This document shows positions 751 through 19,479 of a DNA stretch of 32,030 nucleotides, one piece after another. The stretch is from a virus. Lineage: Duplodnaviria; Caudoviricetes. A model generated the notes under the pieces. It was not told where the DNA came from. It saw only the letters and a program-made list of their open reading frames with translations, and searched no databases. The stretch spans positions 1-32,030 of IMG/VR virus record IMGVR_UViG_3300026863_000035, one strand, 5' to 3'. Position 1 is the stretch's first letter. Each line of letters starts with the position of its first letter. Position numbers and translations under genes: made by a program.

Positions 751-1311
751 ATGCCAAACCGGTCCGTCGCGAGCCCGGCACTATGGACGGCGATGCGCCG
801 GCTGCGCGAAGAGTATGGCGTCATCTACGCGCTGATTTCGGACGCCAGCGGCGTAAAGGCGGACACGATCCGCAGCAAGGCGCAACGCGAGGGCTGGCGC
901 TGCCCGACGGTACGCACCGCCGTGCCGGACGCCGGGCTGGACCTGCCCGAGGCGGACGATGAGGGGCACGCCGAGGCCGGCGCCGAGGCAATGGAGGCCG
1001 TCGCGCTGGAGGAGTTTCTGGGCAGGTCGGACGGACCCGCCGAGCTGGGCGCCATGCTGCATGCGCAGGTCAGGGAGCTGGTGGGAAATGCCCGCAAGGG
1101 GCGCGTCGAGAAGGGGCGCATCGATGCGCTGGCCGCGCTGATGCGCCTCGTCGAACGGGCGGAGGTGCTGGCAAAAGACGGCGCCCAGGACCAAAAAAAG
1201 AGAAGCGATGACGAACTCGCCGAAGTCCTCGAACGCATCGACGAGCGGATCGTCGAACTGGCTGAACACCACGCAGAGCGGCTGGTCGCACAACAATCTG
1301 ACGCCGGATGA
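751..1311 (+). CDS. GTA small terminase-like protein (g1)
   Basis: 186 aa; N-terminal HTH-like ...GVKADTIRSKAQREGW; GGAG Shine-Dalgarno; overlaps the large terminase. Confidence 0.7.
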   Translation: MPNRSVASPALWTAMRRLREEYGVIYALISDASGVKADTIRSKAQREGWRCPTVRTAVPDAGLDLPEADDEGHAEAGAEAMEAVALEEFLGRSDGPAELGAMLHAQVRELVGNARKGRVEKGRIDALAALMRLVERAEVLAKDGAQDQKKRSDDELAEVLERIDERIVELAEHHAERLVAQQSDAG

Positions 1312-2461
1312 GGCCGACCGCGCGCTCGCCGAATGGTTCGGCCAGGCGCATGGCGACCAGTATCCGCTGCCGCATGCGCCGCAGAACTGGCTGGTGACGG
1401 GCGGGCGCGGCGCGGGCAAGACGCGGCTCGGCGCCGAGTGGGTGAACGCGCTGGTGCGCGGCCTGCCGCCCTTTGCGCTGGACGGGCAGCGCTATGGCCG
1501 CATCGCGCTGATCGGCGAGACGCTGGCCGACGTGCGCGAGGTGATGATCGACGGCGTGTCGGGCATTGTCGCCGTGGCGCGGCAGGGGCGGCCGGAATTC
1601 GAGGCGACGCGGCGCAGGCTGGTGTGGCCGTCGGGCGCGGTGGCGCAGATGTTTTCGGCCGAAGATCCCGAAAGCCTGCGCGGGCCGCAGTTCGACGCCG
1701 CCTGGTGCGACGAGCTGGCGAAATGGAAGAACGCGCAGGCCTGCTTCGACATGCTGCAGTTCTGCATGCGCGTCGGGCCAAGGCCGATGCAGCTGATCAC
1801 CACCACGCCGCGACCGACGAAGCTGGTGAAGCGGCTCCTGACCGACGGCGTGTTTGCGGTGACCCGGCTGCGGACGCAGGCGAATGAAAGGAATCTCGCC
1901 GGCGGTTTCGTCGCCGCGCTGAAGCGGCGCTACGAGGGAACGCGGCTGGGACGGCAGGAACTGGGCGGCGAGCTGATCGAGGAGCGCGAGGACGCGCTGT
2001 GGTCGCGCGCCATGCTGGAAGCGGCGGCGCTCGACGATTGCCCGGAGCTTGGCCGCATCGTGGTGGCGGTCGACCCGCCGGCGAGCGCGAAGAAATCGTC
2101 GGACGCCTGCGGCATCGTTGCTGCCGGGCTGGATGGGGACGGCATCGTGGTGGTGCTGGCCGACGCGACGCTGAACGCCGCGCGGCCGCAGGACTGGGCG
2201 GGCGCGGCGGTCGCGCTCTACCACCGGCTGGAGGCCGACTGTCTCGTGGCCGAGGTGAACCAGGGCGGCGACATGGTGAGTGCAGTGATCCGCGCCGCCG
2301 ACGCTTCGGTGCCGGTGAAGCCCGTGCGGGCGCGGCGCGGCAAATGGATCCGCGCCGAGCCGGTGGCGATGCTCTACCAGCAGGGCAGGGTGCGTCATGC
2401 CGGCCGCTTTGCGGCACTCGAGGACGAGATGTGCGAATTTAGCAGAACCAAGGATTGTTGA
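1208..2461 (+). pseudogene. terL: GTA large terminase (g2), N-terminal part, truncated by the satellite insertion
   Basis: Walker A GGRGAGKT, LRGPQFDAAWCDE Walker B, ITTTPRP, VAVDPP, AEVNQGG. After EDEMC it reads into foreign DNA (EFSRTKDC*). Start position uncertain. Confidence 0.92.
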
Positions 2462-2816
2462 AGGAAAACAATCACATAAGGTTTACACGGAAGCCGCGAA
2501 AAAGCATGAACGGGGCCAGAACACGGCAGCCGATTGTAAAGCGGAAATCCCGCCCGATGACGGCCCGGCTGGAAACGAAACCGCCGCCCCGACTGGCATC
2601 GGAAGCGGCGGCAATACGTCAGAAAAGCACAGCAGCGCTTTCGAGGGAAACTGCTACCACAGCGGCGAGCTGCCTGCAACGCGCGCGGCCCGTTGGTACC
2701 GGGAAAATCGTGAGACTTGCCCGCGTCCGATCGTGCCGACGCTGCGCCGCATGTTCGGCCTCACGGCGCTTCAGGTGTGCCAAGCGATCCGCGAAGCGAA
2801 CGGGGGTGGCCGATGA
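2397..2816 (+). CDS. Satellite hypothetical protein (start codon not inside the element)
   Basis: Protein-like C-terminus AARWYRENRETCPRPIVPTLRRMFGLTALQVCQAIREA; stop overlaps the next ATG (ATGA); no ATG/GTG/TTG in this frame between attL and the IVPT codons. Confidence 0.45.
   Translation: MPAALRHSRTRCANLAEPRIVEGKQSHKVYTEAAKKHERGQNTAADCKAEIPPDDGPAGNETAAPTGIGSGGNTSEKHSSAFEGNCYHSGELPATRAARWYRENRETCPRPIVPTLRRMFGLTALQVCQAIREANGGGR
2423..2436 (+). repeat. attL core of the satellite
   Basis: GACGAGATGTGCGA versus GATGAAATGTGCGA at 13087-13100; identical 8-bp core ATGTGCGA at 2429-2436. Confidence 0.85.
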
Positions 2817-3487
2817 CCGCCGCCTCGTTCACCGTCTCGGACGCATTGCTGCGCAGCCTGGCGCGCAAGCCCGCGCCCGACGCCGAGATCATGGCCGGCT
2901 ACATGTCGGGCGCGATCGCCACGCGCGGGCCTTCCCTGCGCCTGCCCAAGCCGTCACGCCCGTTCGGCGGGCGCTTCACCCGGCCGCGCCCGCAACGCTC
3001 TCCCGATCGCGAGAGGTCTATCCATCGCAGGCGGACGCTCGCCGCGACGTGGCCGATGCCGCCCGTCATGGCCGGCATGCTCACCACGAGCCAAGTCGCC
3101 TATGCCCGCATCGTGTCCGACGAGGTGCACAGGACCGGCCGGTGCGAACTGACGCTCGACGAGATCGCGGCGCGCGGTGGCATGTGTCGCAAGACGGCCA
3201 AGCGGGCACAGGACCGCCTCGCCGAGCTGCAATGGGTCGCCGTCGAGGAACGGCCCGTGACGGGCCGCAAGCACCTGCCCAACGTCGTGCGCATCGTGTC
3301 GAGCGAATGGGCGACGTGGATCAAGATGGGTCCGAGGCCTCGCCGCACAGGGGGACATTCGTGTCCTACCACGGGAAACCAGTCTATTCCTTCTGCACAG
3401 CTCGCGCCCGTTGAGAGGTCGCAAGGGGCTTATGAGAGGGAGCGAGCGGGACCGCTGCGGCCACCTGGGCAGCGAGGGCGCACCTGA
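2813..3487 (+). CDS. Winged-HTH replication initiator-like protein
   Basis: GRCELTLDEIAARGGMCRKTAKRAQDRLAELQWVAVEER...PNVVRI is an HTH_36/replicase-like pattern; translationally coupled at both ends. Confidence 0.6.
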   Translation: MTAASFTVSDALLRSLARKPAPDAEIMAGYMSGAIATRGPSLRLPKPSRPFGGRFTRPRPQRSPDRERSIHRRRTLAATWPMPPVMAGMLTTSQVAYARIVSDEVHRTGRCELTLDEIAARGGMCRKTAKRAQDRLAELQWVAVEERPVTGRKHLPNVVRIVSSEWATWIKMGPRPRRTGGHSCPTTGNQSIPSAQLAPVERSQGAYERERAGPLRPPGQRGRT

Positions 3488-3819
3488 TGCCCGGCGACCC
3501 GTACTACAAGAGCCGCCATTGGCGCGAGCTGCGGGCCGCAAGGCTCCAGCTCGACCGGAACACATGCGTCGTGCCCGGTTGCGGGAAGCGCGCGACCACG
3601 GTCGACCACATCAAACGGAGGCGTGACGGCGGGCGCGACACGATCGCCAACACGCGGTCGCTGTGTGACGAGCACGACCGCGCGGTGAAAGAGCTGCCGA
3701 ACGGGAAGCGAAGGAACGGCGGCAAGCTGGTGGTGAAGGGCTGCTATGCGGACGGAAGCCCGCGCGACCCGGCGCACCCGTGGTTTACAGGCGGGCCGAG
3801 GGGGGTTCGATCATCATAG
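3487..3819 (+). CDS. HNH endonuclease (HK97 gp74-like terminase cofactor)
   Basis: YYKSRHWRELR, CVVPGC, TVDHIK, NTRSLCDEHD; directly upstream of terL. Confidence 0.88.
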   Translation: MPGDPYYKSRHWRELRAARLQLDRNTCVVPGCGKRATTVDHIKRRRDGGRDTIANTRSLCDEHDRAVKELPNGKRRNGGKLVVKGCYADGSPRDPAHPWFTGGPRGVRSS

Positions 3820-3885
3820 TTCGGCTGGGGGCGGGACCGTTGGGGGCAGTCGGACACACTTACTTTCACAAAGGATTTCAATGAG

Positions 3886-5535
3886 ATGGGAAAGCGAGGC
3901 ATAGGGGCGAAGCCGGTCAAGGCGGTTGCCGAGATCGCGAAAAAGCGGCGCAAGAGCAAGCCGTGGGAAAAGCGCGGCCTGTCTCGCGCCGGCCGCGTCA
4001 TCGCGTTCATAGAGACGCTGAAAATCACGTCGGGCATGCACGCCGGCAAGCCGTTCATCCTGCGCCCGTGGCAGCGGACCATCATCGAGGCGATCTACGA
4101 GACGGACGCGGCCGGCAAGCGGATCAAGCGGCAGGTGCTCCTCACGATCCCCCGAAAAAACGGCAAGACCCAGCTCGCCGCCGCCCTGGCGCTGGCGCAC
4201 CTGGTCGGCCCGGAAGCCGAACAGCGCGGGCAAGTCTATTCCGCCGCCGCCGACCGGAAGCAGGCCGCGCTCATCCTGCGCGAGCTGGTCGCGTTCGTCC
4301 GCGCCGACGCCGAGCTGGCCGACCGGATCATCATCCGCGAGCACAGCAAGACCCTGGAGGATGTCGTCACCGGCTCGACCTATGAGGCGCTGTCGTCGGA
4401 CGCGAAGAAGGCGCACGGCCTCAACGTGTCGTTCGCCGTGCTCGACGAGCTGGCGCAATGGCCGAAGCGCGACCTATACGACGCGCTCACCACGGGCGGG
4501 GCGGCCCGCGCCGAGCCGCTGTTCGTGACGATCTCGACGCAAAGCCACGACAAAAATTCCGTCATGTCGGAGTTGGTCCAATATGGGCAGCGTGTACTCG
4601 ACGGCGCGATCGTGGACGAGACGTTCCTGCCGGTGATCTTCGCCGCGCCCGACGATGCCGACCCGTGGTCGGAGGCGACCTGGTTCGCCTGCAACCCGGC
4701 ACTCGGCGACTTCCGCTCGCTCGACGAAATGCGATCGGCCGCCGAACAGGCGAAGTCGCTGCCGGCGCGCGAACCGTCGTTCCGTCTGCTCTACCTGAAC
4801 CAGCCTGTCGACGCGACGGCGCGGTTCCTCAATGCCCGCGACTGGACCGCGTGCAAGGCGTCGAGCGACGGCGGGCTGTTCGGGCAGATGACCCTTTCGA
4901 AACAGCGCTGCATCCTTGGCCTTGACCTGTCGTCGACCACGGACTTGACGGCGCTCGCCGCATGGTTCCCCGAGACGCGCGACCTTATGGCGTGGTTCTG
5001 GATGCCGGCCGACAATCTGGAGGAAGCCGAGCGCCGCGACCATGTTCCCTATCGCCTCTGGCAGCGGCAGGGGCATATCGAAGCCACGCCGGGCCGCGCG
5101 ATCGACAAGGCGTTCGTCGTGCACCGCATGGCCGAGCTGACGAAGGAGTTCAACGTCCAGTTCTGCGCCGCCGACCGCTGGCGGCTCGACGAAGTGCGCC
5201 GGATCATGGCCGAGCAAGGCGTCAAGATCGAGATGCAGGAGTTCGGGCAGGGCTGGCGGGACATGGGGCCGGCGATCGACGCGATCGAGACGGCCGTGCT
5301 GCGCCGCGAGCTGCGCCACCCTGGGCACCCGGTGCTCGACATGTGCGTGTCGAACGCCGTGACGGTTTCCGACCCGACCGGCGCGCGCAAGCTGGTAAAG
5401 GAACGGAACACGGGCCGCATCGACGGCCTCGTGGCGGCGACGATGGCGATCGGCGCGGCCGTGAAAGTCGCGCCGAAAAAGCCGAGCGTCTATCAAGGGC
5501 GCGGGCTGATCTCGCTGGTGAGGAAATCGGCTTAG
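3886..5535 (+). CDS. terL: Satellite large terminase (Terminase_1 family, cos type)
   Basis: LRPWQ, IPRKNGKT Walker A, VLDELA Walker B, ISTQ, GLDLSSTTDLTA, RIDGLVA. Confidence 0.93.
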   Translation: MGKRGIGAKPVKAVAEIAKKRRKSKPWEKRGLSRAGRVIAFIETLKITSGMHAGKPFILRPWQRTIIEAIYETDAAGKRIKRQVLLTIPRKNGKTQLAAALALAHLVGPEAEQRGQVYSAAADRKQAALILRELVAFVRADAELADRIIIREHSKTLEDVVTGSTYEALSSDAKKAHGLNVSFAVLDELAQWPKRDLYDALTTGGAARAEPLFVTISTQSHDKNSVMSELVQYGQRVLDGAIVDETFLPVIFAAPDDADPWSEATWFACNPALGDFRSLDEMRSAAEQAKSLPAREPSFRLLYLNQPVDATARFLNARDWTACKASSDGGLFGQMTLSKQRCILGLDLSSTTDLTALAAWFPETRDLMAWFWMPADNLEEAERRDHVPYRLWQRQGHIEATPGRAIDKAFVVHRMAELTKEFNVQFCAADRWRLDEVRRIMAEQGVKIEMQEFGQGWRDMGPAIDAIETAVLRRELRHPGHPVLDMCVSNAVTVSDPTGARKLVKERNTGRIDGLVAATMAIGAAVKVAPKKPSVYQGRGLISLVRKSA

Positions 5536-5819
5536 CTCGGCGGATCGCTGTCGAAGCGTTTCAGAATGCCGACAACATCGTCATCATTCGCGGGGGACCG
5601 GCGTGCAAGTCGCACGCCGGCACCGCCGCCGTTCTCGGCAATGAAGATCACGCCGGCCGTCTCCAGCGCAGCGCGGATAGCGTCCACCGTCCGCTCACGC
5701 AATTCCTCGCCGCGCTCAAAGCGCGTGATCGTGTTCGTCGAGACCTTGGCTTGCTCGGCGAGTTCTCTAACGCCGAGTTCAAGAGCCGCGCGGGCCATCC
5801 TGCATTGTGCTGGTGTCAA
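5532..5819 (-). CDS. XRE-family HTH transcriptional regulator
   Basis: AQCRMARAALELGVRELAEQAKVSTNTITRFERG...AGVIFIAENGGGAGVRL; TTG start. Confidence 0.9.
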   Translation of the reverse strand: MTPAQCRMARAALELGVRELAEQAKVSTNTITRFERGEELRERTVDAIRAALETAGVIFIAENGGGAGVRLARRSPANDDDVVGILKRFDSDPPS

Positions 5820-5822
5820 TTC

Positions 5823-5904
5823 GCATCACCGTAGCGAAATCGCCTTGACGTGGCGATTAAGGTTGAGTTAACGCTACACTGTAGCAAAATCGCTGCAATG
5901 TAGC
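5823..5904. promoter_or_regulatory. Three 13-bp operator-like palindromes
   Basis: GCATCACCGTAGC (5823-5835), GCTACACTGTAGC (5873-5885, perfect palindrome), GCTGCAATGTAGC (5892-5904). Confidence 0.7.
5857..5872 (+). promoter_or_regulatory. CtrA-binding consensus TTAA-N7-TTAAC
   Basis: TTAA GGTTGAG TTAAC, exact match, in the divergent intergenic region. Confidence 0.7.
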
Positions 5905-5917
5905 AATGAGGTTGACC

Positions 5918-6385
5918 ATGCCGAACACCGCTGTTCGCGCAGCCGGCGAAGCTATGCCCGCTGCGAAGAACCTGACCACGATCCTGCGGCCTGCCGAGCT
6001 GCCGGAACGCTACGCCATGATCTGCGACGGCGACTGCATGCTGCCGGAGATCGACCACGGAACGAAGCTGATCTTCAACCGCGACACGCCGGCCGTGCCG
6101 GGCGACATGGTGGCGCTGTTCTGGTCACCGGAGCATGTGAAGGCCGGCGAGCATCAGGTTGTCGTCAAACGCCTCGTGGTCGGTCCCGCGCCTTGGACGC
6201 AATGGGGGAAGCCGACGCGCGGCGACGTGCAGACGATGGTCATCGTCGAGATGCTCAATCCGCGCCGCCAGTTCTTCATTCCGACCGAAAAGCTGCTCGG
6301 CATGCACAAATGCGAGGGTCCGGTGCCGGCCGGCACGACGACGCGGAAGGTCACCAAACGCGAAATGACGCGGGCCGCACGCTGA
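5918..6385 (+). CDS. Stand-alone S24/LexA-peptidase-like protein
   Basis: YAMICDGDCMLPEIDHG...GDMVALF...VVKRL matches the S24 pattern with GDSM changed to GDCM; GAGG before ATG 5918 (alternative start 5906). Confidence 0.7.
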   Translation: MPNTAVRAAGEAMPAAKNLTTILRPAELPERYAMICDGDCMLPEIDHGTKLIFNRDTPAVPGDMVALFWSPEHVKAGEHQVVVKRLVVGPAPWTQWGKPTRGDVQTMVIVEMLNPRRQFFIPTEKLLGMHKCEGPVPAGTTTRKVTKREMTRAAR

Positions 6386-6448
6386 TTATCCACAGGCGGA
6401 AATGTGGGGCAGCCCACACGTCAATTGACGCGCGCTTCTTTTCGTGGG

Positions 6449-7078
6449 ATGCCTCACGACATGAGCGCGCGTTTTTCATTCTCCATGAACCGTTTCGGCC
6501 CCACGCGGGCGGAAGAAATCAGCGGCGTGAGCCGGACCACGCAACGCGACTGGCGGCGCGAGGGCCATCTGCCGACTTCCGAGGGAATGGCCCGCTACGA
6601 TCTTTTCGACCTGTGCGAATTGTGGGTTCTCAAGTCGTGCGCGGACGTTGGCCTTGGTCCGAAGCGGGCAAAGGTGTTTTCGCGCTCGGCCGCGTTGCAT
6701 ATGGCGTGGCACTGCCTGCGGCTAATCGGCTCCTACGAGGGCGATCACCTGACCGCGCCGGCTTCGAAGCACAACAAGACCTTCGACCTGGGCGGGCAGA
6801 CCTTCGACACGCCGGCCTGGGGCCGGAAGGCGCGGTGGCTCGCCGATCACATCATGTACGACAAAGACGATCCGAACCCGTGCAGCGAGTTCTACGGCAT
6901 CTGGCCCGATGGCGAGGCGATGCCGATGGACAATTTCCATTCGATGTTCATGCCGGCCGACCGCGCCGTCGCGAAGCGTGGCGCGGTGATCGTGCTGCCC
7001 CTCAATCTCGCGGCAAACTGGCTTGTCGAGGCGGCGAACGAACCGCTCGTGCAGGTCACGTTCGAAAAAGGGGGATGA
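6449..7078 (+). CDS. MerR-like HTH DNA-binding protein
   Basis: FGPTRAEEISGVSRTTQRDWRREGHL...ARYDLFDL; start uncertain (6449/6461/6485). Confidence 0.65.
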   Translation: MPHDMSARFSFSMNRFGPTRAEEISGVSRTTQRDWRREGHLPTSEGMARYDLFDLCELWVLKSCADVGLGPKRAKVFSRSAALHMAWHCLRLIGSYEGDHLTAPASKHNKTFDLGGQTFDTPAWGRKARWLADHIMYDKDDPNPCSEFYGIWPDGEAMPMDNFHSMFMPADRAVAKRGAVIVLPLNLAANWLVEAANEPLVQVTFEKGG

Positions 7079-7138
7079 TTTCCACAGGAATTTTATCCTC
7101 ACCCTGCGAGGTGCGCGCATCATGCGTATCGAGTTTTC

Positions 7139-7226
7139 CCGTCGTGAGACGGCACTTCCCAGCACCGAACGTCGTGAGACGCCCGGCCCGATGGACCCTT
7201 AACCCCGCCGTGAGGCGGCACTTCCC
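7139..7226 (+). repeat. Three GTGA-tetraloop hairpins in the capsid leader
   Basis: CCGTC-GTGA-GACGG+CACTTCCC (7139-7160), CGTC-GTGA-GACG (7170-7181), CCGCC-GTGA-GGCGG+CACTTCCC (7205-7226). Confidence 0.75.
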
Positions 7227-7242
7227 AACGAAGGAGACTGAC

Positions 7243-8544
7243 ATGAAAATTCACGAATTGCAGGAAGCCCGCACGACGGCCGTCGTCAACATGCGGGCCT
7301 TGGCCGACCTGGCCGACACCGAAAAGCGCGACCTGACGGCCGACGAAGAAACCAAGTTCGGCACGTTCAAGTCGACCATCGCCGATCTCGACAAGAAGAT
7401 CAGCCGGGCGCAGACGCTCGCCGATGCCGAGCGCAGTTCGCCTGCCATCGTGCACGGCCGTCTCGGCGACGGCGCATTCGAGGAACGCGCCCGCGACTTT
7501 TCCATCGTCAAGTGCATCCGCTCGACGCTGCCGGCCAACATGGGCGGCGCGGTGGACATCGGCTTCGAGCGCGAGATCGGCACGGAAGTCGCGCGGCGCA
7601 CCGGCCGGGCCTATGAAGGCTTCGCCGTTCCGGATGAAATCTTCCTGACCGAGCGCCGCACGCTGCTGGCCGGCTCCAGCGCCGCCGATCTCATTCCCAA
7701 CGTGCACCGCACCGACCTGTTCATCAACCGGCTGCGCAACCGTCTCGTGGTCGGTCGGCTCGGCGCAACCTATCTCGACGGTCTTGTCGGCACGGTCGAC
7801 ATTCCGCGCCAGACGGGCAGCTCGACGGCCCAGTGGGTGGCCGAAGACGGCTCGCTCACCGAAACCGACGCAACGTTCGACGACGTGACGTTCGCGCCGA
7901 AAACGGTCGGCGCGATGACCAGCTACAGCCGGCGCACGATCATCAACGCATCGCCCGCGATCGAGAACATCGTGCGCGCCGATCTTGCCGCCGTAATCGC
8001 TTCCGCGATCGACGAAAAGGCGCTTGTTGGCACGGGCGCGAGCAATACCCCGGTCGGCATCACCAACACGGCCGGCGTGACGGAGATCGCGTTGACGGCT
8101 GCGCCGACCTGGGCGCAGGTGCTCCAGTTCATCGCGGCGATCGACGCCAGCAACGCGCTGGAAGGGTCTCTTGGCTGGGCCGGCAATCCGCACGTCGTGG
8201 CACTCATGCGCGCGGCCGTGAAGGTCACGTCCGACGCGGGCGCGGGCTTCATCATGGACGCGGCAAACGAGCTGGCCGGCTATCCACTGGTCAACACGAT
8301 GGCGCTGCCCGGCGTTGCGCCGGCTGCTACGCCGGAAGTGGCGTCGGCCCTGATCTTTGGCGACTGGTCGCAGCTCATGGTCGGCTCGTGGACCGGCATC
8401 GATATTCTCGCCAATCCTTATGAGACGACGGCCTATGCCAAGGGCCGCATTCTCGTGCGGGCGATGAAGGACGTGGACGTGCAGGTGCGCCAGCCGAAGG
8501 CGTTCGCGTTCACCGATACCATCGTCACCGGCACCGATGCATAG
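7243..8544 (+). CDS. Satellite major capsid protein (HK97 fold, coiled-coil delta domain)
   Basis: AAGGAG Shine-Dalgarno, MKIHELQE..., IPRQTG, AQWVAE, GDWSQL, ILANPY, VRQPKAF; 433 aa. Confidence 0.92.
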   Translation: MKIHELQEARTTAVVNMRALADLADTEKRDLTADEETKFGTFKSTIADLDKKISRAQTLADAERSSPAIVHGRLGDGAFEERARDFSIVKCIRSTLPANMGGAVDIGFEREIGTEVARRTGRAYEGFAVPDEIFLTERRTLLAGSSAADLIPNVHRTDLFINRLRNRLVVGRLGATYLDGLVGTVDIPRQTGSSTAQWVAEDGSLTETDATFDDVTFAPKTVGAMTSYSRRTIINASPAIENIVRADLAAVIASAIDEKALVGTGASNTPVGITNTAGVTEIALTAAPTWAQVLQFIAAIDASNALEGSLGWAGNPHVVALMRAAVKVTSDAGAGFIMDAANELAGYPLVNTMALPGVAPAATPEVASALIFGDWSQLMVGSWTGIDILANPYETTAYAKGRILVRAMKDVDVQVRQPKAFAFTDTIVTGTDA

Positions 8545-8556
8545 GGGGACATTGCC

Positions 8557-9111
8557 TTGACCCTCGAACGCCGGGTCGCTGTTGAGCTGAGGGCCGGGGG
8601 AGACAAGAAGTCCCCCCGGCTCATCGGCCATGCGGCCGTCTTCAACTCACCGTCGCAAGATTTGGGCGGCTTCACCGAGATCGTGCTGCCGGGTGCGTTC
8701 AAGCGCACGCTGGCGTCCGACCGCGACCCGCTGGCGCTCGTGCAGCATTTGCCGGCGCTCGTGCTTGGCCGGCGCTCGGCGGGCACGCTGCGCCTGCAAG
8801 AGGACGGGCGCGGCCTGGCATTCGAGATCGACGTGCCGGACACCAGCGCCGCCCGCGACCTTCTCGTGAGCGTCGAGCGCGGCGACGTGCGCGGCGCGAG
8901 CTTCGCGTTCTCGGTGCCCAAAGGCGGGGACCGCTGGCAGGTTCGCGGCGACCAGGTGGTGCGCGAGCTGGCCGACGTCGACCTGCACGAAGTCACGATC
9001 ACGGCGCAGCCGGCCTATCTCGACACGTCCGTCGCCCGCCGCTCCTACGAGCTGCAAATCCGCAACGCGCCGCGCCTCCGGGCGCTTCGCCGCTTTCTGG
9101 AGACGGTGTGA
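8557..9111 (+). CDS. Satellite HK97-family prohead protease
   Basis: GHAAVFNSPSQDLGGFTEIVLPGAF, VERGDVRGASFAF, LHEVTITAQPAY. Confidence 0.93.
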   Translation: MTLERRVAVELRAGGDKKSPRLIGHAAVFNSPSQDLGGFTEIVLPGAFKRTLASDRDPLALVQHLPALVLGRRSAGTLRLQEDGRGLAFEIDVPDTSAARDLLVSVERGDVRGASFAFSVPKGGDRWQVRGDQVVRELADVDLHEVTITAQPAYLDTSVARRSYELQIRNAPRLRALRRFLETV

Positions 9112-10343
9112 TGGAAGCCGCCACGATCTCGACCGAAAAGCGGTCGACGCCGACGACATGGGACTTGCTGCGCACCGGGGCCGACTATGGCACCGATGCC
9201 GGCGTTCCCGTGTCCCCCTATCTCGCCGAGAACCTGTCCGTAGTCTTCTCGTGCGTCCAGGTGATCGCCGAGACGGTCGGCATGTTGCCGTTGCTGGTCT
9301 ATCGCAAGATCGGCGACGGCGACCGTTCGCAGGATCCTGCGCACCCGGTCGCACAGATCTTCGGCGGCGATGCCAACGACCGGCAGACGGCAAGCGAGTT
9401 CATCGAAATGATGACCGCGCATTGCCTGTTGCGCGGCAACGCCTATGCCGAGATCGTGCGCGACGGCCGCGGTGCGCCCGTCCAGCTCATCCCCTACCAT
9501 CCCGACCATGTGAGCGTCGTGCGGCTCACCCGCACCGATCGCTACGCCTATGACGTGAGCCGGCCGGAAGGCGGCACCAGGCGCTTGCTGCCGGAAGAGA
9601 TGTTGCACCTTCGCGACCGTTCCGACGACGGCGTGGTCGGCAAGTCGCGCCTGGCGCGTGCGCGCGAGACGTTCGGCAGCGCCATCGCGACCGAACGCTA
9701 TGCGGCGTCGACCTTCAAGAACGGCGCATCCATGTCCGGCATTCTGTCGCACCCGGAAGCGATCGGCGAAGAAGCGGCCGACCGGCTGCAACGCGACTTC
9801 AAGCAGACCTATTCCGGCGCCGACCGTGCCGGCGCCGTCGCCGTGCTCGAGGAAGGCTTGAAGTGGCAACAGGTGAGCGTGTCGCCCGACGACGCGCAGA
9901 TGCTGGAAAGCCGCAAGTTCTCGACGATGGCGCTGGCGCGCATCTTCCGCGTGCCGCCGCCCGTGATCGGCGATTTCGAGGGCGGCAACTATTCGTCGAT
10001 CTCAGAAGTCGGCCGCTGGTTCCACTCGCACACCATCATGCCCTGGCTGGCGCGTTGGGAACGGCTGATCGAACACAGTCTGTTTTCGTCCATGACGCGG
10101 CGCTCGCTGGAGGTCGAATTTGACTGCGATCTCCTCCTACGCGGCGACATGCTGACCCGGTTCCAAGCCTACCGCATCGCCCGCGAGATCGGCGTCTACA
10201 ACGCCAACGAACTGCGCCGCTTCGAAAAGCAGAACCGTCGCACCGACCCGGCCGGCGACGAATATTTCGCGCCCGCCAACATGCAGCAGGAACAGACGGC
10301 CCGGCCTGTCGCCGATCGGAATGGAGGCGACAATGCCGAATAG
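9108..10343 (+). CDS. Satellite HK97-family portal protein
   Basis: VFSCVQVIAETVGMLP, LLRGNAY, VLEEGLKW, ARIFRVPP, NELRRFE. Confidence 0.93.
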   Translation: MMEAATISTEKRSTPTTWDLLRTGADYGTDAGVPVSPYLAENLSVVFSCVQVIAETVGMLPLLVYRKIGDGDRSQDPAHPVAQIFGGDANDRQTASEFIEMMTAHCLLRGNAYAEIVRDGRGAPVQLIPYHPDHVSVVRLTRTDRYAYDVSRPEGGTRRLLPEEMLHLRDRSDDGVVGKSRLARARETFGSAIATERYAASTFKNGASMSGILSHPEAIGEEAADRLQRDFKQTYSGADRAGAVAVLEEGLKWQQVSVSPDDAQMLESRKFSTMALARIFRVPPPVIGDFEGGNYSSISEVGRWFHSHTIMPWLARWERLIEHSLFSSMTRRSLEVEFDCDLLLRGDMLTRFQAYRIAREIGVYNANELRRFEKQNRRTDPAGDEYFAPANMQQEQTARPVADRNGGDNAE

Positions 10344-10932
10344 CCTTCTCTCCGTCACCACGGCCGCGACCGCCTTCAACATCGTCGACCTTGGCGTCGT
10401 GCGCGCCGCGCTCGGCATCGTCGACAACAGCGATGACGCGGCGCTGACCGGCCATCTCAATCGCGCGTCCGACGTGATCGCCCGCCAATGCAAGCGGACC
10501 TTCGCGCTGGAAACCGTCGAGGAACAGTTCCGGCTCGACCGCTGGCGCGAAGAGCTGATCCTGTCGCGCTATCCCGTCGTCGCGGTCGCGTCGATCGTCG
10601 AGGCGGGCTTGACGGTCGCGCCGGCCGACTATGAGGCCGACAAGGCCAAGGGCATCCTGTCGCGGCTCCACCAGGACAAGCCGTGCTGGTGGCCGGCGCA
10701 CAAGATCGTCGTCACCTACAGCGCCGGATACGATCTCCCGAACGCCGCGCCGGAAGCACTGCAACAGGCCTGCATTCAGCTCGTGAAGTCCTACTACATG
10801 GCGGCCGACCGCGACCCGATGGTGCGGTCGGAAAGCCTCGATGACGTGTCGGCCGCGTCCTACTTCGGGACCGGCGGGCACCTGCCGCCCGATGTGTCGG
10901 CGCTCCTGAAACAATTCCGCAAGCTCAAGTGA
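10333..10932 (+). CDS. Satellite head-tail connector (gp6-like)
   Basis: GGAGG then ATG 10333; LSRYPVVAV, VTYSAGY, PEALQQAC, ALLKQFR. Confidence 0.75.
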   Translation: MPNSLLSVTTAATAFNIVDLGVVRAALGIVDNSDDAALTGHLNRASDVIARQCKRTFALETVEEQFRLDRWREELILSRYPVVAVASIVEAGLTVAPADYEADKAKGILSRLHQDKPCWWPAHKIVVTYSAGYDLPNAAPEALQQACIQLVKSYYMAADRDPMVRSESLDDVSAASYFGTGGHLPPDVSALLKQFRKLK

Positions 10933-10941
10933 GGTGACGCC

Positions 10942-11352
10942 GTGCTCAATCCCGGTTCCTACACCCTGTTGTCGCGCCAGCTCACGACCGCCGTTGCCGG
11001 CGAGGCGCAGACCGCCGTCGACAAGCTCGCCGGCATCCTCGCCGCGACCCTGCAGTGCGAGTTCGCCTATGGCAGCGGCGGCACGAGCTGCAAGGTCTAT
11101 GCGCAGGTGTCGCTCGACAACGGCCTGTCCTGGGTGGACGTGGCGTGCTTCGCCTTCACCACGGCGAGCGCCGTCAAGGTGGTGAACCTCTCGGCGCAGA
11201 CGCCGGTCACGACGGCCGTCACGCCGGCACAGGCGAGCCTCACCGACAACACCGTGGTCGACGGCATCCTTGGTGCCGTCATGCGCGCCGTCGTGGTGTC
11301 GACCGGCACCTACGCCAACACGCAAGTCCGGCTGAGGCTCGACGCGAAATGA
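10942..11352 (+). CDS. Satellite hypothetical beta-rich virion protein
   Basis: 136 aa, T/A/V-rich, contains SLDNGLSW; GAGGT Shine-Dalgarno; lies between the connector genes. Confidence 0.6.
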   Translation: MLNPGSYTLLSRQLTTAVAGEAQTAVDKLAGILAATLQCEFAYGSGGTSCKVYAQVSLDNGLSWVDVACFAFTTASAVKVVNLSAQTPVTTAVTPAQASLTDNTVVDGILGAVMRAVVVSTGTYANTQVRLRLDAK

Positions 11353-11735
11353 GAAACCCGCACGTCGCCCGTCTGGACAGGCAAATTCGGCTCCATGGCG
11401 AGCCGGTCTTGCTCACGCGCCAGTTGGCCGGCGTGCGGCGTCATGTGCTCAACACGCGCGGCATCGTGAAGACCTTCGCGGCGGAACAGCTCATCGGGTC
11501 GATCACACAGACGAATTATCTGGTGATCCTGTCGCCGACCGATCTCCGCAACAAGGGCTTTCCCGGCGCGGTGCCGGAAGCGATCCCCAGCGGCACCGTG
11601 CCGCCTGCCGACCCGAACCTGCCGAACACGGGAGACGCGCTTGTGATCCGGGGCACGCAAAAGGCGATCGGGCAAGTCTCGGCGATCTATGACGGCGGCG
11701 AGATCGTGCGCATCGAAATCAAGGTGCTGGGATGA
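11349..11735 (+). CDS. Satellite head-closure/head-tail adaptor-like protein
   Basis: Coupled ATGA start, MRNPHVARLDRQIRLHGEPVLL...TGDALVIRG...VRIEIKVLG; call rests on size and position. Confidence 0.55.
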   Translation: MRNPHVARLDRQIRLHGEPVLLTRQLAGVRRHVLNTRGIVKTFAAEQLIGSITQTNYLVILSPTDLRNKGFPGAVPEAIPSGTVPPADPNLPNTGDALVIRGTQKAIGQVSAIYDGGEIVRIEIKVLG

Positions 11736-11992
11736 TGCGCGACCACGGCCCGCGTTCCTATCTGTCGTGCGCCTCGCTGGCGCACGAGCTGGATATGTCG
11801 GAGACGACTATTCACGAGATGGTCCGTCGTGGTGTGCTGCCGAGGCCGGTCAAGCTGTCATCCGGATGCGTCCGGTGGTGCTGGGCCGACGTGCAACGTG
11901 CGCTCGGCTCGCTGTCCGCCGAATACGCGAATGCCGCCGCTGCGGCCGACCCGTTCCTTGCGGGGGCACGCAATGCCACGTCAACGCAATAG
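11732..11992 (+). CDS. AlpA-family regulator/excisionase
   Basis: LAHELDMSETTIHEMVRRGVLPRPVKLSSGCVRW; immediately upstream of the integrase. Confidence 0.85.
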   Translation: MMRDHGPRSYLSCASLAHELDMSETTIHEMVRRGVLPRPVKLSSGCVRWCWADVQRALGSLSAEYANAAAAADPFLAGARNATSTQ

Positions 11993-13058
11993 AGCCGCCG
12001 TCAATCTACCCAAGGGCGTGCACCGTGTCGTCTCACGCGGTCGCGAATATTTCTATTTTCAGCCCGGCCGGGGCACGCCGCACGCCGGGCCACGCATCCC
12101 ATTGCCGAACGATCCTCACGCGCCTGAGTTCTGGAATGCGATCCGGCAGGCGCAGGGCCTTGTCGGCGCGGTGCCGGTCGACACGTTCGGCGCGGTGCTC
12201 GACGGCTATCTGGAGTTCATCAAATCGTCCGGCGCGCTCACGGCCGGCACGATTGACCAATACGACCGGGCGCTGCGCATCGGCCGGAAGGCTTGGGGCA
12301 ATCTGCCGGCGAAGGGTCTGCGCCCTGTGCATGTGCAAGCCGTCATGGACGGCCTGGCCGGCACCACGGGCAAGGCGAACAACTTCCTGAGCGCCATGCG
12401 GGCACTGTCGACGTGGGCGCGCGTCCGCGACCATATCGAGCACAGCTTGACCGAGGGCGTGAAGCCCTATGCGAAGGACACGGGGCACAAGCCTTGGACG
12501 CCGGAACAGATCGAGGCGGCGCTGTCAAAGCTGACTGGCGTGCTTCGTCGTGGCGTGGCGCTCTACCTGTGGACCGGGATGCGGGGCAGCGATGCCGTCC
12601 GGCTCGGCTGGACCGATATCGACGAAGGCGGGTTCTCCTACCGATCGCAAAAGACGGGCCGCGATGTCTGGTGCCCGATCGTCCCGGAACTTGCGGCCGA
12701 AATGGCCACCTGGGAAAAGCGGCCGGGACCGTTCCTCTATCACGACGGCGGAAGGGCAGACGGCCGGCGCTACTCTCGCAAGAAATTCTCTGAGCACTTC
12801 GCCGAGGCGCGGGACAAGGTGCCCGAGCTGGCCGGCGTCACGCTGCACGGGCTGCGCTGCACGGCCGTCATCCGCCTGCGCCGCGCCGGCCTCTCGACGG
12901 CGCAGATCGGCGATATCGTCGGCATGTCCCTTCCGATGATCGAACGCTACTGCCGGTTCGCCGATCGCAAGGCCAGCGGCATGGCCGCGCTGTTCACGTT
13001 GAAGGAACGGGCGAAGAACGAAACTGTAAAACACGGCAAAACCGTAAAGCATAAATAG
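11973..13058 (+). CDS. int: Tyrosine recombinase/integrase
   Basis: TGMRGSD (R), SQKTG (K), LHGLR (HxxR), IERY (Y); ends about 35 bp before attR. Confidence 0.93.
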   Translation: MPRQRNRAAVNLPKGVHRVVSRGREYFYFQPGRGTPHAGPRIPLPNDPHAPEFWNAIRQAQGLVGAVPVDTFGAVLDGYLEFIKSSGALTAGTIDQYDRALRIGRKAWGNLPAKGLRPVHVQAVMDGLAGTTGKANNFLSAMRALSTWARVRDHIEHSLTEGVKPYAKDTGHKPWTPEQIEAALSKLTGVLRRGVALYLWTGMRGSDAVRLGWTDIDEGGFSYRSQKTGRDVWCPIVPELAAEMATWEKRPGPFLYHDGGRADGRRYSRKKFSEHFAEARDKVPELAGVTLHGLRCTAVIRLRRAGLSTAQIGDIVGMSLPMIERYCRFADRKASGMAALFTLKERAKNETVKHGKTVKHK

Positions 13059-13086
13059 AGCAAAATCAGGAGGTTAGAGGTCGCCA

Positions 13087-13100
13087 GATGAAATGTGCGA
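13087..13100 (+). repeat. attR core of the satellite
   Basis: ATGTGCGA at 13093-13100; IHF-like WATCAR-N4-TTR at 13064-13076. Confidence 0.85.
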
Positions 13101-13218
13101 TTTCGGCGCCGACGGTCTCGCCAATGGCCGCTCGCCCGACCGCGTCGATGCGCTGGTCTGGGCCGTGACCGAGCTGATGCGCGGGGCAGGCGCGGGGCCG
13201 AGGGTGCGGGGGATGTGA
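13093..13218 (+). pseudogene. terL: GTA large terminase, displaced C-terminal part
   Basis: Hand translation: MCDFGADGLANGRSPDRVDALVWAVTELMRGAGAGPRVRGM*, the typical GTA TerL ending; joins the upstream part in frame at the core. Confidence 0.92.
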
Positions 13219-13220
13219 GG

Positions 13221-13290
13221 GAGTAGTGAGTAGTGAGTAGTGAGTAGTGAGTAGTGAATAGTGAATAGTGAGTAGTGAATAGTGAATAGT
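13221..13290 (+). repeat. Heptamer tandem array, 10 x GARTAGT
   Basis: Counted directly: 6 GAGTAGT plus 4 GAATAGT. Confidence 0.95.
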
Positions 13291-13365
13291 GCAAAGTCTG
13301 ACTAAAATAAATATATTTCGGCATTTTAGATTTAATTTGTGATGATAAAGCTGCATGGTGAAACC

Positions 13366-13484
13366 ACTACTCACTACTCACTACTCACTACTCACTACTC
13401 ACTACTCACTACTCACTACTCACTACTCACTACTCACTACTCACTACTCACTACTCACTACTCACTACTCACTACTCACTATTC
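13366..13484 (-). repeat. Heptamer tandem array, 17 x ACTAYTC (inverse of the first array)
   Basis: 16 ACTACTC plus 1 ACTATTC. Confidence 0.95.
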
Positions 13485-13520: not shown

Positions 13521-15362
13521 ATGGCATGGACATGGCCCTGGCGCGCGGGCGCCGGGAACGAGCGTTTACGGCCCGAGCACAAGGGGCTGGCGGGCGGTTT
13601 CGTCGCTTTCCACCTCCAGAGCGACGCAGCGTGGACGCGGCGCGATTTTGCGACGCTTTCGCGCGAGGGGTTCATGCGCAACCCCATCGTGCACCGCACG
13701 GTGCGGCTGATTTCCGAGACGGCGGCGGCCATTCCGTGGCTGGTCTTCGACGGGGCAGAAGAGATCACCGAGCATCCACTGCTGGACCTCTTGGAGCGGC
13801 CCAATGCCGGCCAGGCGGGCGGGGCTTTTCTCGAGGCCGCCTATGGCAATCTGCTGATTTCCGGCAATGCCTATGTCGAGCTGGTCGAGGCCGGGCCGAG
13901 CTTGCGCGAACTGCATCTCCTGCGCCCCGACCGGGTGACGGTGGCGAGCGATGCGCGGGGCTGGCCGGTGGCGCTGGAATACCGCAGCGGGTCTGAGCGG
14001 CGCATGCTGCCGACATCGGGCGCGCGGCCGGCGGCGGGCACCGCGCTGCACCTCAAGCTCTATCACCCGCTCGACGACCATTATGGCTTTCCGCCGCTGG
14101 AAGCAGCGTCGATGGCGCTCGACACGCACAATGCGGCGGGCCGCTGGAACAAGGCGCTGCTCGACAATTCGGCGAGGCCCTCGGGCGCGCTGGTCTATGC
14201 GCCCAAGGAGGGCGGCAATCTCTCCGACGAGCAGTTCGCCCGGCTGAAGGAGGAGCTGGAGAACGGCTATACGGGCGCCGCGCGCGCCGGACGGCCGCTT
14301 CTGCTGGAAGGCGGGCTCGACTGGAAGGCGATGGGCCTGACGCCCAAGGACATGGACTTCATCGAGGCCAAGAATGCGGCGAGCCGCGACATCGCGCTCG
14401 CTTTCGGCGTGCCACCGATGCTGCTCGGCATTCCGGGCGACAACACTTTTGCCAACTACCAGGAGGCCAACCGCGCCTTCTACCGCATGACCGTGCTGCC
14501 GCTGGTGGCGCGCACCGCCAAGGAGTTTTCGGCCTGGCTGGCGCCGCTCTACAGGCCGGGGCTAAAACTGTGGTACGACGTCGACCAGGTCGACGGGCTG
14601 GCGACCGAGCGCGAGGCGGTGTGGGCCCGCGTCGGCGCGGCGAGCTTTCTCAGCGATGACGAGAAGCGCGCGGCGGTGGGGTATGGGGTGAGGGAGGGCT
14701 TCGACGCCAAGGCTGGCTATCGGCCGGATCAGCCGCGCATGCCGCGCGGAAGCGAGAACGGCGGCCAATGGATGGCGGACGGGAGCGCGCCGGTCATTCG
14801 CGTCCAGTCCGGCCCCCGCCGTACCGGAACCGGTCCGCCACGACGCATCGCGGGACGCTCGGTCGACATTTCACCTGCGCAGGCTACCCGATTGGAGCTG
14901 AGCCAGGCGCAGATGCAGGCTGCGGTCACGCGAGTGAGAGAATTGCAGCCGCGATGGAAACCGACCCCCAGTGCATATGAGACGGTTGAAGGTCAGATCG
15001 CCGCGAACGAAGCAGCAACGCGGGAAGCGCTGAATCGGCTTTTCGTTCTGCAACGGGAAGGGCTGGGGCCCGGTCCATTCGCCGGGGAGTCACAGCCCGC
15101 GCGCGGATCGGGCCGCCGCTGGACGACCGAGGAAATTCGGGAGAATAATCGGATCGGCAAGACGTTTGGCTGCCATACGTGCGGAACTCGGGATCCCGGA
15201 CTAGGCAACGGAAATTTCATACTCGATCATCAGCGCCCCAACGCTCTGAACTCGGAGGGTCAAGCGCAGCGCATATTTCCTCAATGCGCGACATGCAGCC
15301 GGCGGCAAGGGGGAAAAATCAGAGCGCTGATCTATAGAGGGTACCATGATTCAGACAATTAA
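13521..15362 (+). CDS. GTA portal protein (g3) fused to a C-terminal HNH toxin-like domain
   Basis: Portal core (GFMRNPIVHR, GRPLLLEGGLDWK, IALAFGVPPMLLGIPGDNT, EKRAAVGYG) ends about aa 389. Then YRPDQPRMPRGSENGGQW, GCHTCG, LDHQ, CATC. Confidence 0.88.
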   Translation: MAWTWPWRAGAGNERLRPEHKGLAGGFVAFHLQSDAAWTRRDFATLSREGFMRNPIVHRTVRLISETAAAIPWLVFDGAEEITEHPLLDLLERPNAGQAGGAFLEAAYGNLLISGNAYVELVEAGPSLRELHLLRPDRVTVASDARGWPVALEYRSGSERRMLPTSGARPAAGTALHLKLYHPLDDHYGFPPLEAASMALDTHNAAGRWNKALLDNSARPSGALVYAPKEGGNLSDEQFARLKEELENGYTGAARAGRPLLLEGGLDWKAMGLTPKDMDFIEAKNAASRDIALAFGVPPMLLGIPGDNTFANYQEANRAFYRMTVLPLVARTAKEFSAWLAPLYRPGLKLWYDVDQVDGLATEREAVWARVGAASFLSDDEKRAAVGYGVREGFDAKAGYRPDQPRMPRGSENGGQWMADGSAPVIRVQSGPRRTGTGPPRRIAGRSVDISPAQATRLELSQAQMQAAVTRVRELQPRWKPTPSAYETVEGQIAANEAATREALNRLFVLQREGLGPGPFAGESQPARGSGRRWTTEEIRENNRIGKTFGCHTCGTRDPGLGNGNFILDHQRPNALNSEGQAQRIFPQCATCSRRQGGKIRALIYRGYHDSDN

Positions 15363-15711
15363 ACGACCGATGGAAAATGGTCTTCTGTTCGTCGAGGATG
15401 TGAAAGGTGGCGAACCGCCCGATCCGGTGACCGACGATGTGGTGCAATTCACCGCATCCTGCATCTCGGTTGCTTGCCTTCACGAAATGGACGGCGAGGC
15501 CGAATTCCTGCTCGGACCTGCGGACGAGGTCGCGCCGGCCTACGATCTCGCCTTTGATGGAAATCTCGAGACCCCCAGTCGGGAGCTGATACTTTCCGCC
15601 GTGACGGGCGAGCCGTTTCTGAAAGCAAAGGTACCGGACGTGCTGACCCGTGTCCGCATCTGGCGCAGCCATCCCCGCTGGCCGGAGACAGTGGCCGTCG
15701 GTTGGGGATAA
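15346..15711 (+). CDS. Putative immunity protein 1
   Basis: 121 aa, acidic, overlaps the toxin stop codon; paralog of the next gene. Confidence 0.65.
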   Translation: MIQTIKRPMENGLLFVEDVKGGEPPDPVTDDVVQFTASCISVACLHEMDGEAEFLLGPADEVAPAYDLAFDGNLETPSRELILSAVTGEPFLKAKVPDVLTRVRIWRSHPRWPETVAVGWG

Positions 15712-15760
15712 GCGATGCCTCGGTGCGGGCAGCTTCTGAGAGACAGACTGGAGGACTAGG

Positions 15761-16147
15761 ATGAGCAGCTCGGTCACCCTCGCGCCTTCGCACGCCTTGC
15801 TGTTCATATCGGATCGGTCAGGCGGCGAAGCTCCCGAGTTCACGGCTGACACGCCGATCATGTCTACGGACACCGGCATCCTGGTCCATTGCCTTCCCGA
15901 TATGGACGGCGACACAACGGTGACGCTTGGAAGGGTAGCGGACGTCGGGCTGCCGCAGACTCCGGTCTTCGATGGGATCATCAAACTGCCGACCAAAAAT
16001 CTGATGGTTGCGACCGTCGAGGACGACGGCATTCGTTTGGACACTGTGCCGACAGTCGAAACACGCATCCGCATCTGGACCAACAGGGCGCTCGACCCCG
16101 ACGACATCGTCATCGGCTGGGGCGAGGGGGATGTCGCGGCGGCGTAG
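15761..16147 (+). CDS. Putative immunity protein 2 (paralog)
   Basis: Shares LLF, CLxxMDG, FDGxxxxP, RxRIW and xGWG with 15346-15711; GGAGG Shine-Dalgarno. Confidence 0.65.
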   Translation: MSSSVTLAPSHALLFISDRSGGEAPEFTADTPIMSTDTGILVHCLPDMDGDTTVTLGRVADVGLPQTPVFDGIIKLPTKNLMVATVEDDGIRLDTVPTVETRIRIWTNRALDPDDIVIGWGEGDVAAA

Positions 16148-16284
16148 CTGAAAGATCTGCGGCGGCACGGTGCAGGTGCCGTCAGGTCGAACGCCGCTCA
16201 CGCAGATGTGTGTTTGACACTGCGCGGCCTGGGAAGCACACTTCACGGCATCGCTTTTGTCCCCGGTCTGAAAGTGAGGCTCGC

Positions 16285-16773: not shown

Positions 16774-16920
16774 AATTCAGCAAGACGGCGAACGACGATC
16801 GGCGAAGGGCGCGGGCATGGCTTGCAGCTGTCGCTCCTTTGAGCTTGCCGCCGCCTGACTCCCCGGCCATCCGGACAGCCGTGTCCGCACCGTAACCATC
16901 ACACCATCAGGAGCCTTCCC

Positions 16921-17271: not shown

Positions 17272-17336
17272 CGGACAGTCCCGGGCCTTTGAAGCCGACC
17301 GATCCATTCACGTATCCATTCTGCAAGGAGGCGCCG

Positions 17337-19279: not shown

Positions 19280-19286
19280 GCGCTGC

Positions 19287-19424
19287 GGCGTCATTCCGGA
19301 ATCGGCCTTGAGCGAAGCGAGAGGACGATCTCCGGGACCCATTCCGTTGCATTGGCCGAGTTGAGGAATGGGTCCCGGATATTCGCGGTTCGCTGCGCTC
19401 GCCTGCGAATTCCGGGATGACGCC
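19287..19424. repeat. RIME/RPE-like palindromic element, copy 2 (inverted relative to copy 1)
   Basis: GGCGTCATTCCGGAAT...ATTCCGGGATGACGCC; internal CCGGGACCCATTCC/GGAATGGGTCCCGG stem. Confidence 0.78.
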
Positions 19425-19479
19425 CGCGTTTCCAACTTCCCATCGGCGGCGGGGCGGCGCCCCTTCGTTCCGCGCGCCG

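Follow-up and report, generated by a model that had tools for sequence, protein, structure and literature searches.

The window analysed here is the whole 32,030-nucleotide stretch of DNA of IMG/VR record IMGVR_UViG_3300026863_000035, to which all window coordinates refer. It carries a gene cluster for a gene transfer agent (GTA) of the RcGTA type, in which the large terminase gene, terL, is split by an insert of 10,664 bp lying between two copies of a short repeat. The insert is a tail-less element that encodes a phage head, and on balance it is probable that this element is a capsid-forming satellite which has integrated at a 7-bp overlap within GTA terL, the GTA being its landing pad and its casualty and not what controls it. 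The split gene and its attachment sites are laid out as follows.

751 to 1311, plus strand: predicted GTA small terminase (g1 position); no family match, function assigned by position, with homologues directly 5' of GTA terL in three other loci (L096, L097, L100)
1208 to 2436, plus strand: GTA large terminase (TerL), 5' part, comprising the ATPase and most of the nuclease; matches PF03237 and a shortened PF17289, 98% identical to the intact homologues P0122 and P0123
2429 to 2436, plus strand: attL core, 7-bp overlap at 2430 to 2436, from the repeat and comparison of junctions
2480 to 2488, minus strand: predicted arm-type integrase site, an inverted copy of the attR-side motif, kept at the same distance in forward left junctions
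13023 to 13050, plus strand: two predicted arm-type integrase sites (13023 to 13032 and 13042 to 13050), a repeated motif kept in forward right junctions
13093 to 13100, plus strand: attR core, 7-bp overlap at 13094 to 13100, from the repeat and comparison of junctions
13101 to 13218, plus strand: orphan 3' end of GTA terL, 39 codons, with the SPDRxDA codons from 13132; assigned from the in-silico join and a confidently modelled helix of the intact homologue

Only two copies of the repeat ATGTGCGA exist in the window (2429-2436 and 13093-13100), and when 1208-2436 is joined computationally to 13101-13218 the product is a frame of 448 codons whose sole stop is terminal. An 8-mer alone is weak evidence of a junction, since about 0.11 chance copies are expected per 12 kb; the junction call is secure because intact natural alleles exist and because junctions were found elsewhere, 28 distinct left ones (19 forward, 9 reverse) and 20 right ones having been collected overall. 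These came from an integrase search that returned 30 viral loci (12 at the terL codon, one of them the window's own copy) and 36 loci in genomes (15 at the terL codon, three of which duplicate viral loci), together with scans for the attL pattern, which turned up eight loci in viral contigs and eight in metagenome contigs. The natural homologues P0122 and P0123, each 386 aa, are 98% identical to the window's protein and read through the junction without interruption, so an empty terL allele exists in near-identical strains. The occupied locus also recurs in near-identical form in two other assemblies (L031, which is 14 bp shorter, and L123), and these may represent the same strain as the window. 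The host of the window is probably Phyllobacteriaceae-like, because the best named relatives of its terminase, at approximately 70-74%, belong to Pseudaminobacter and Mesorhizobium.

In its interrupted state the terL frame runs for 8 foreign codons past EDEMC and stops at 2461. A first-pass annotation of this DNA had stated that terL is split and that joining its parts yields a 448-aa open reading frame (ORF), that the element does not duplicate the 3' end so as to repair the gene, and that particular 21-mers should mark the attB and attP junctions; the repeat cores, the computed join, the intact alleles, the junctions elsewhere and the early stop bear out the first two statements, and the 21-mers agree with both junctions. 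It had also described the insert as foreign DNA, which is correct as regards the insertion but leaves the insert anonymous, when it is rather a tail-less element encoding a head. The length of 448 aa depends on a start at the ATG at 1208, which overlaps the small terminase gene. Two homologues (P0141 and P0182) begin at the position which corresponds to the ACG codon at 1271-1273 of the window, and the true start is therefore uncertain, lying either at the upstream ATG at 1208 within terS or at a non-canonical start near 1271. Three GTA terminases of 378-395 aa (P0144, P0182 and P0198) end in DEMCEFS and have been deposited as if complete; judged by these endings, they are probably further occupied sites.

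The residues separated from TerL by the insert belong to the nuclease domain. The match to PF17289 (155 positions) extends from 2 to 153 in P0122 and from 2 to 132 in the truncated protein. An AlphaFold model of P0122 has a mean predicted local distance difference test (pLDDT) score of 66, with a value of approximately 90 in the helix formed by residues 361-375, and a fold search groups the intact homologue with terminase nucleases; sequence searches of solved structures gave nothing significant. Alignment of the model with the G20c structure 5m1o (Z 16.4, root-mean-square deviation 3.2, 165 residues aligned, model 197-374 against chain 254-442) places D361 of SPDRxDA opposite G20c D429, a correspondence obtained from the offset of the end points and not from a printed alignment. 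D429 is indispensable in G20c (PMC5389553). The 39 residues lost are accordingly predicted to carry the third catalytic aspartate, and the insertion cuts off the nuclease domain's final helix; the earlier proposal that SPDRxDA carries the last acidic residue of the nuclease site is consistent with both the shortened PF17289 match and the offset, the catalytic role being a reading of the structure. Small-terminase mutants of RcGTA are described as packaging no DNA, attaching no tails and releasing empty heads, and free tails are not shown in the account of these mutants (PMC6854486). Because TerL loses its nuclease end and these mutants package no DNA, carriers have probably lost GTA DNA packaging, a loss that would be incidental to parasitism.

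The exchanged overlap is most likely the 7-bp sequence TGTGCGA, because in reverse residents the integrase-side arm directly adjoins the reverse complement of TGTGCGA, and because in a host with a variant overlap (L088) the variant is present at both junctions. The conserved EDEMCDF codons constitute a near-palindromic attachment site found across the Hyphomicrobiales, and GTA terL is a shared, sporadically filled, order-wide attachment site; among the hosts known by name are Chelativorans, Mesorhizobium, Bosea, Pararhizobium, Methylocystis, Methylobacterium, Rhodopseudomonas, Microbaculum and Ancylobacter. Carriers available in culture are Chelativorans intermedius LMG 28482, Bosea vaviloviae SD260 and Pararhizobium mangrovi BGMRC 6574. 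At none of the 28 left junctions is the TerL C-terminus rebuilt, and a search of the two junctions gave no site resembling a promoter or terminator. The orphan terL tails are stop-free and keep SPDRxDA in 20 of 20 cases (two of them end at contig ends), and they therefore fit recent or reversible insertion. In a quick integrase tree, from which duplicate rows and partial integrases of fewer than 300 aligned residues had been removed, 16 forward terL integrases form one clade (Shimodaira-Hasegawa-like approximate likelihood-ratio support 100), and the sister clade uses tmRNA. Comparable head modules, likewise tail-less, are carried by this sister clade in four loci (L012, L053, L062 and L113), where they lie at the permuted gene for tmRNA.

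Occupancy of the site was surveyed in two samples, with five candidates scored per genome, and the resulting counts are floors. In the family sample the integrase was present (E<=1e-70) in at least 8 of 401 genomes, at least five of them with the integrase at terL, three of which were already known; in the order sample it was present in at least 5 of 401, with at least three at terL, all already known. A further family sample of 301 genomes, including one unpublished genome (G082), gave a TerL match in 245, and every listed match reaches the C-terminus, a statement which does not extend to 112 weaker, unlisted matches. No report of integration into GTA terL, or of satellites using GTA tails, was found in the literature searched, which covered few subscription papers and no supplements.

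The genes of the insert, all of which are open frames, are the following.

2676 to 2816, plus strand: small DNA-binding-like ORF of uncertain start (open frame 2397-2816); weak match to phrog_24797, 64-74% conserved in four other loci (L044, L045, L048, L125)
2813 to 3487, plus strand: winged-helix protein, likely replication initiator; phrog_15967, role assigned indirectly
3487 to 3819, plus strand: HNH endonuclease of the packaging-associated type; PF01844 and PHROGs
3800 to 3865, no strand assigned: candidate cos region, a set of G-run, ACCG and TTA(C/G)T-like motifs that recurs before TerL in the 14 elements compared
3886 to 5535, plus strand: the element's own large terminase, Terminase_1/HK97 type; PF03354, PF20441, phrog_9
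5532 to 5819, minus strand: XRE-type repressor; HTH_31 (E=1.2e-5, just below cut-off), phrog_2439
5918 to 6385, plus strand: S24 peptidase-like protein; PF00717 (E=0.0026, below cut-off)
6485 to 7078, plus strand: MerR-like helix-turn-helix regulator; PF13411 (E=0.007, below cut-off)
7243 to 8544, plus strand: HK97-fold major capsid protein; TIGR01554, PF05065
8557 to 9111, plus strand: prohead protease; TIGR01543, PF04586
9108 to 10343, plus strand: HK97-type portal; TIGR01537
10333 to 10932, plus strand: head-tail adaptor; phrog_442, 27% identical to the GTA adaptor and 28-39% to the adaptors of siphoprophages L152, L153 and L155
10942 to 11352, plus strand: viral protein of 136 aa that may decorate the capsid; the closest cluster with a name is Bbp16 (11% of members, score 0.90), which serves only as a lead
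11349 to 11735, plus strand: head-closure protein with a lambda gpFII-like fold; Atlas structure match to PF05354 (template-modelling scores 0.63/0.71), 30-34% identical to the closures of L152, L153 and L155
11732 to 11992, plus strand: excisionase/AlpA-like protein; phrog_66, with a Pfam AlpA match below cut-off
11970 to 13058, plus strand: tyrosine integrase; PF00589, phrog_1

No tail, holin or lysis genes were found among the element ORFs scanned. The element's own TerL is of a type unrelated to that of the GTA, and the stretch before it is taken to be a cos region on the assumption of an HK97-type layout. The model of the 2813-3487 product matches winged-helix regulators only at E>=1e-3, and phrog_15967 is a family of unknown function, which the replication initiator of a related element (L150) also matches. 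The integrase residues R205, K228, H293, R296 and Y327, which we take to be the catalytic positions, are invariant in 120 of 120 homologues, and the position usually held by H or W is M in 114 of the 120, a trait of the family. No integrase match was obtained in phage records at E<=1e-20, no head-module match was obtained in plasmid records, and a search of viral contigs for the closure protein returned only the window's own copy.

This gene set is most similar to that of the phage-inducible chromosomal islands that form capsids (cf-PICIs) EcCIEDL933 and KpCIDSM30104, which are described as elements of 10-18 kb with an integrase, regulators, HNH endonuclease, TerL, capsid, protease, portal, adaptor and connector and without tail or lysis genes, and in which adaptor and connector are swapped between otherwise similar elements, as is also the case here (PMC10085698; bioRxiv 10.1101/2025.02.11.637232). 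The insert has the corresponding size and att repeats, an integrase, a regulator, the capsid, protease and portal genes, HNH and TerL, and an adaptor and connector, and it lacks a recognizable tail or holin; the published model accepts elements with 9-10 of its 11 components. Unlike the cf-PICIs, however, it has no small terminase among its scanned ORFs and a winged-helix protein in place of a recognisable primase-replicase, so that the set fits the description except for TerS and a proven replicase; it also has an alphaproteobacterial host, another gene order, a target within a GTA gene and the additional 136-aa protein, and a circular form with ParA exists among its relatives. The word Alphaproteobacteria is absent from the main text of PMC10085698. 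Because no small terminase was found, the insert is filed here as cf-PICI-like, as resembling these satellites rather than as a member of the group.

The other residents of the site, whose ORFs were predicted with a custom gene caller that may miss genes, range from heads alone to entire phages. Nine of the 13 forward residents seen with both ends are head-only; all nine measure 9,918-10,849 bp, they span two divergent capsid lineages, and one of them (L046) also has a 66-aa neck fragment. The remaining four consist of an 18.3-kb resident (L088, 845-19180 in G123) with head, neck, terminator, tube, chaperones and tape measure and no match to a baseplate, fibre or lysis gene, which is the best candidate for the borrowing of a GTA or phage baseplate; a 17.9-kb resident (L102) with a lambda-like head and a tape measure; an 11.4-kb resident (L101) with a helicase, a capsid-protease and a tape-measure-like protein; and a 13.2-kb resident (L090) with no capsid match. 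One of the reverse residents is a 59.5-kb podovirus-like prophage with an endolysin.

Relatives of the head module also occur away from terL, and these bear on the source of the tail. The closest (L149, G135:C33:1-10670) is a closed circle of 10,670 bp, closed by a joint of end and start that falls within the capsid gene; ParA is present and an integrase is absent, its portal, protease and TerL are 93%, 91% and 89% identical to those of the element, and no match to this plasmid-like form was found in a plasmid collection. The circle shows only that the module can exist extrachromosomally, but since it coexists with an intact GTA terL in the same genome, the head module is independent of the GTA site. 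Because the head module does not need that site, a siphophage helper is a better guess than the GTA for the tail source. The trio of adaptor, 136-aa protein and closure likewise recurs in elements that lack tails and carry other integrases, one of them adjacent to tRNA-Pro (L033) and another near tRNA-Lys (L150), and tmRNA is a further place where related head modules are found. A profile of the closure matched 11 of 400 family genomes, and among the seven that were opened three contain tail-less relatives and four contain what look like full siphoprophages. Pairs of FII-type closure and adaptor (30-34% and 28-39% identical to those of the element) are found in full siphoprophages with a phrog_179 terminator, as opposed to the phrog_176 terminator of the GTA; in the three siphoprophages scanned (L153-L155) the neck is followed by the phrog_179 terminator, a phrog_290 protein and the tape measure, and the GTA terminator does not align with these phrog_179 proteins. 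In cf-PICIs the adaptor and connector are described as determining the choice of tail (bioRxiv 10.1101/2025.02.11.637232).

If the element is a satellite of this kind, its tyrosine integrase would insert it at the terL overlap, and the integrated form would leave TerL without its predicted third catalytic aspartate, so that carriers would not package GTA DNA. Once induced, the element would be excised by its integrase and excisionase, terL being restored as a by-product; it would then replicate, package its genome of approximately 10.7 kb from the cos site into the small head that it encodes, and acquire the tail of a temperate, lambda-like siphophage with a neck that fits the element's FII-type closure.

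Several other explanations must be weighed against this one. It is unlikely, though the least improbable of the alternatives, that the GTA itself is parasitized by the element, or by those of its relatives whose closures are of the Hc1 type, using host GTA tails that would be left free when a broken terL leaves GTA heads empty. The empty, tail-less heads of the RcGTA small-terminase mutants are compatible with such a strategy, as are the predominance of head-only residents and the absence of a baseplate or fibre match from L088, which has a tube and tape measure. Downstream GTA genes, tail genes included, are whole in the window and in five other loci (L131, L132, L133, L137 and L089), and the tail genes are whole in L134 as well; in four of five host genomes the sole tube gene of PF06199, the only tube family searched, is that of the GTA; and the relatives' closures fall in the same PHROG family as the GTA closure (phrog_25). 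The closure of the element, however, is FII-like and cannot be aligned with the GTA closure, and the relatives' Hc1 closures share no more than 19-40% identity with those of GTAs (over at least 60 residues), as compared to 32-69% among GTA closures themselves, and do not track those of their own hosts. The same module is moreover known from other sites and, in a genome with intact terL, as a circle; the terL site is also occupied by prophages that bring virion genes of their own and an endolysin, and excision would restore terL just when the tails are needed. The use of GTA tails is least improbable for the Hc1-type relatives and for the baseplate-less L088. A still smaller probability attaches to the view that elements have been selected to hit terL since silencing GTA packaging benefits them, for example by ensuring that no host nuclease cuts their DNA while the GTA is induced, in the manner of elements that disrupt competence genes. 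The breadth of the integrase group, its two orientations, its spread over several families and the failure of every left junction to restore the C-terminus speak for such selection, but a conserved, dispensable, near-palindromic coding motif accounts for the site without any benefit, and the sister integrase clade goes to tmRNA instead.

The first-pass annotation had proposed a switch controlled by the host, by which only cells that excise the element package GTA DNA. Site-specific elements that split a coding gene are familiar from skin in Bacillus sigK and from prophages in comK and comM, and the present case is similar in that a coding gene is split and precise excision would restore it. 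Excision that restores the frame, an integrase, excisionase and arm sites which look intact, and the completeness of the rest of the window's GTA cluster all agree with a switch, and to this extent the earlier claim that excision would restore terL stands, supported by the in-silico frame and the natural empty alleles; the excised attB and attP junctions proposed as its check were found neither in contigs nor in pattern scans. The switch itself is highly improbable. Unlike the skin and com elements, the insert is sporadic and mobile, its site is common to residents that are mutually unrelated and look fully mobile, and no link to a host programme is shown; a fixed and reduced element of the skin type is not what is found, as the insert is absent from 98%-identical strains, is represented at terL in at least 5 of 401 family genomes and has a full mobile gene set. 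Every TerL match listed from the 301-genome sample reaches the C-terminus, the downstream GTA genes are damaged in several occupied hosts (L091, L134, where the GTA portal has an internal gap, L007, L032 and L136), and no attB or attP joint was seen in the contigs examined. There is a comparably slight chance that the insert is a decayed prophage that has lost its tail and lysis genes and become stuck in terL. The lack of TerS, lysis and tail genes among those found, and the use of the site by full prophages, are what would be expected of such a remnant, but every gene of the element is open, and the head-only layout recurs at 9.9-10.85 kb in nine residents, whose capsids fall into two divergent lineages, as well as in a free circle.

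Certain observations weigh against the satellite interpretation and should be set beside it. A small terminase was not found among the scanned element ORFs, and the gap between HNH and TerL is 66 bp; the HNH protein has a partial match to a TerS-labelled fusion family, and two related elements (L150 and L151) carry TerS. The replication protein is assigned by position and winged-helix fold alone, the identity of the neck proteins to those of candidate helpers is only 30-39% or so, a helper phage of this host is not known, host sequence being limited to the window, and both the packaging loss and the catalytic role of the lost aspartate are read from structure. The attP patterns gave no match in viral or metagenome contigs, where exact patterns on assemblies miss rare circles, and no attB or attP joint was present in the contigs of two sequencing runs from which the window may derive (X1 and X2), which drop rare forms. 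In the X2 contig the depth is 124-126 over the flank and 114-120 over the element, which gives no sign of replication, rare forms being invisible in contigs. A joint from 2433 to 13135 (X5) was rejected as an excision product; it has 25 other letters between its two parts and is probably another organism's intact terL. The apparent loss of GTA head genes in an occupied Rhodopseudomonas palustris (L051) was likewise rejected as decay, a GTA-type capsid gene being present on another contig, as one is in 19 of 19 genomes of the genus.

Downstream of the insert the GTA cluster continues.

13521 to 28544, plus strand: rest of the RcGTA-like cluster, with portal, protease, capsid, adaptor, closure, terminator, tube, chaperones, tape measure, g12-g14 and megatron, all open frames

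The cluster is identified by NF048004 (megatron, 1646 bits against a cut-off of 800), PF11836, PF09343, PF09931 and PF13547, together with a tape-measure match to NF058675 that is below cut-off. Agents of the RcGTA and CcGTA type are described as host clusters with this same gene order from terS to megatron (PMC6854486; PMC9632790); the window differs from them in its interrupted terL and in a portal with a toxin-like C-terminal extension. Between the end of terL and the portal gene (13218-13481) lie two heptamer tandem arrays, inverted, which could form a long hairpin. The GTA portal ORF (in the region 13521-16773) is 613 aa in length, with its normal end near residue 392, beyond which an in-frame linker of the DQPR..P.G...GGQW type leads to a Cys/His-rich, HNH-like tip that has no Pfam match. 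On the 3' side of the portal are two paralogous small ORFs (32% identical, immunity-like) and then a Tox-MPTase3 ORF. This arrangement has the look of a cassette of the polymorphic-toxin kind that has been joined to the GTA portal, with a resemblance to toxins of the MuF type.

Carriers of the element are probably natural and likely reversible knockouts of GTA packaging, and a comparison of isogenic alleles, empty against occupied, could probe the role of the GTA in rhizobia-like bacteria. For annotators, GTA terminases of approximately 355-395 aa that end in DEMCEF and appear to be pseudogenised are likely intact genes that an element interrupts. The element would extend capsid-forming satellites to the Alphaproteobacteria, with a layout that lacks TerS, a range of residents running from heads alone up to a complete phage, and a circular form with ParA. 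Should any of these elements use GTA tails after all, the literature searched would offer no earlier satellite that depends on a domesticated virus, and such elements would turn a domesticated gene-exchange machine into their own helper, placing their DNA-filled heads on its orphaned tails.

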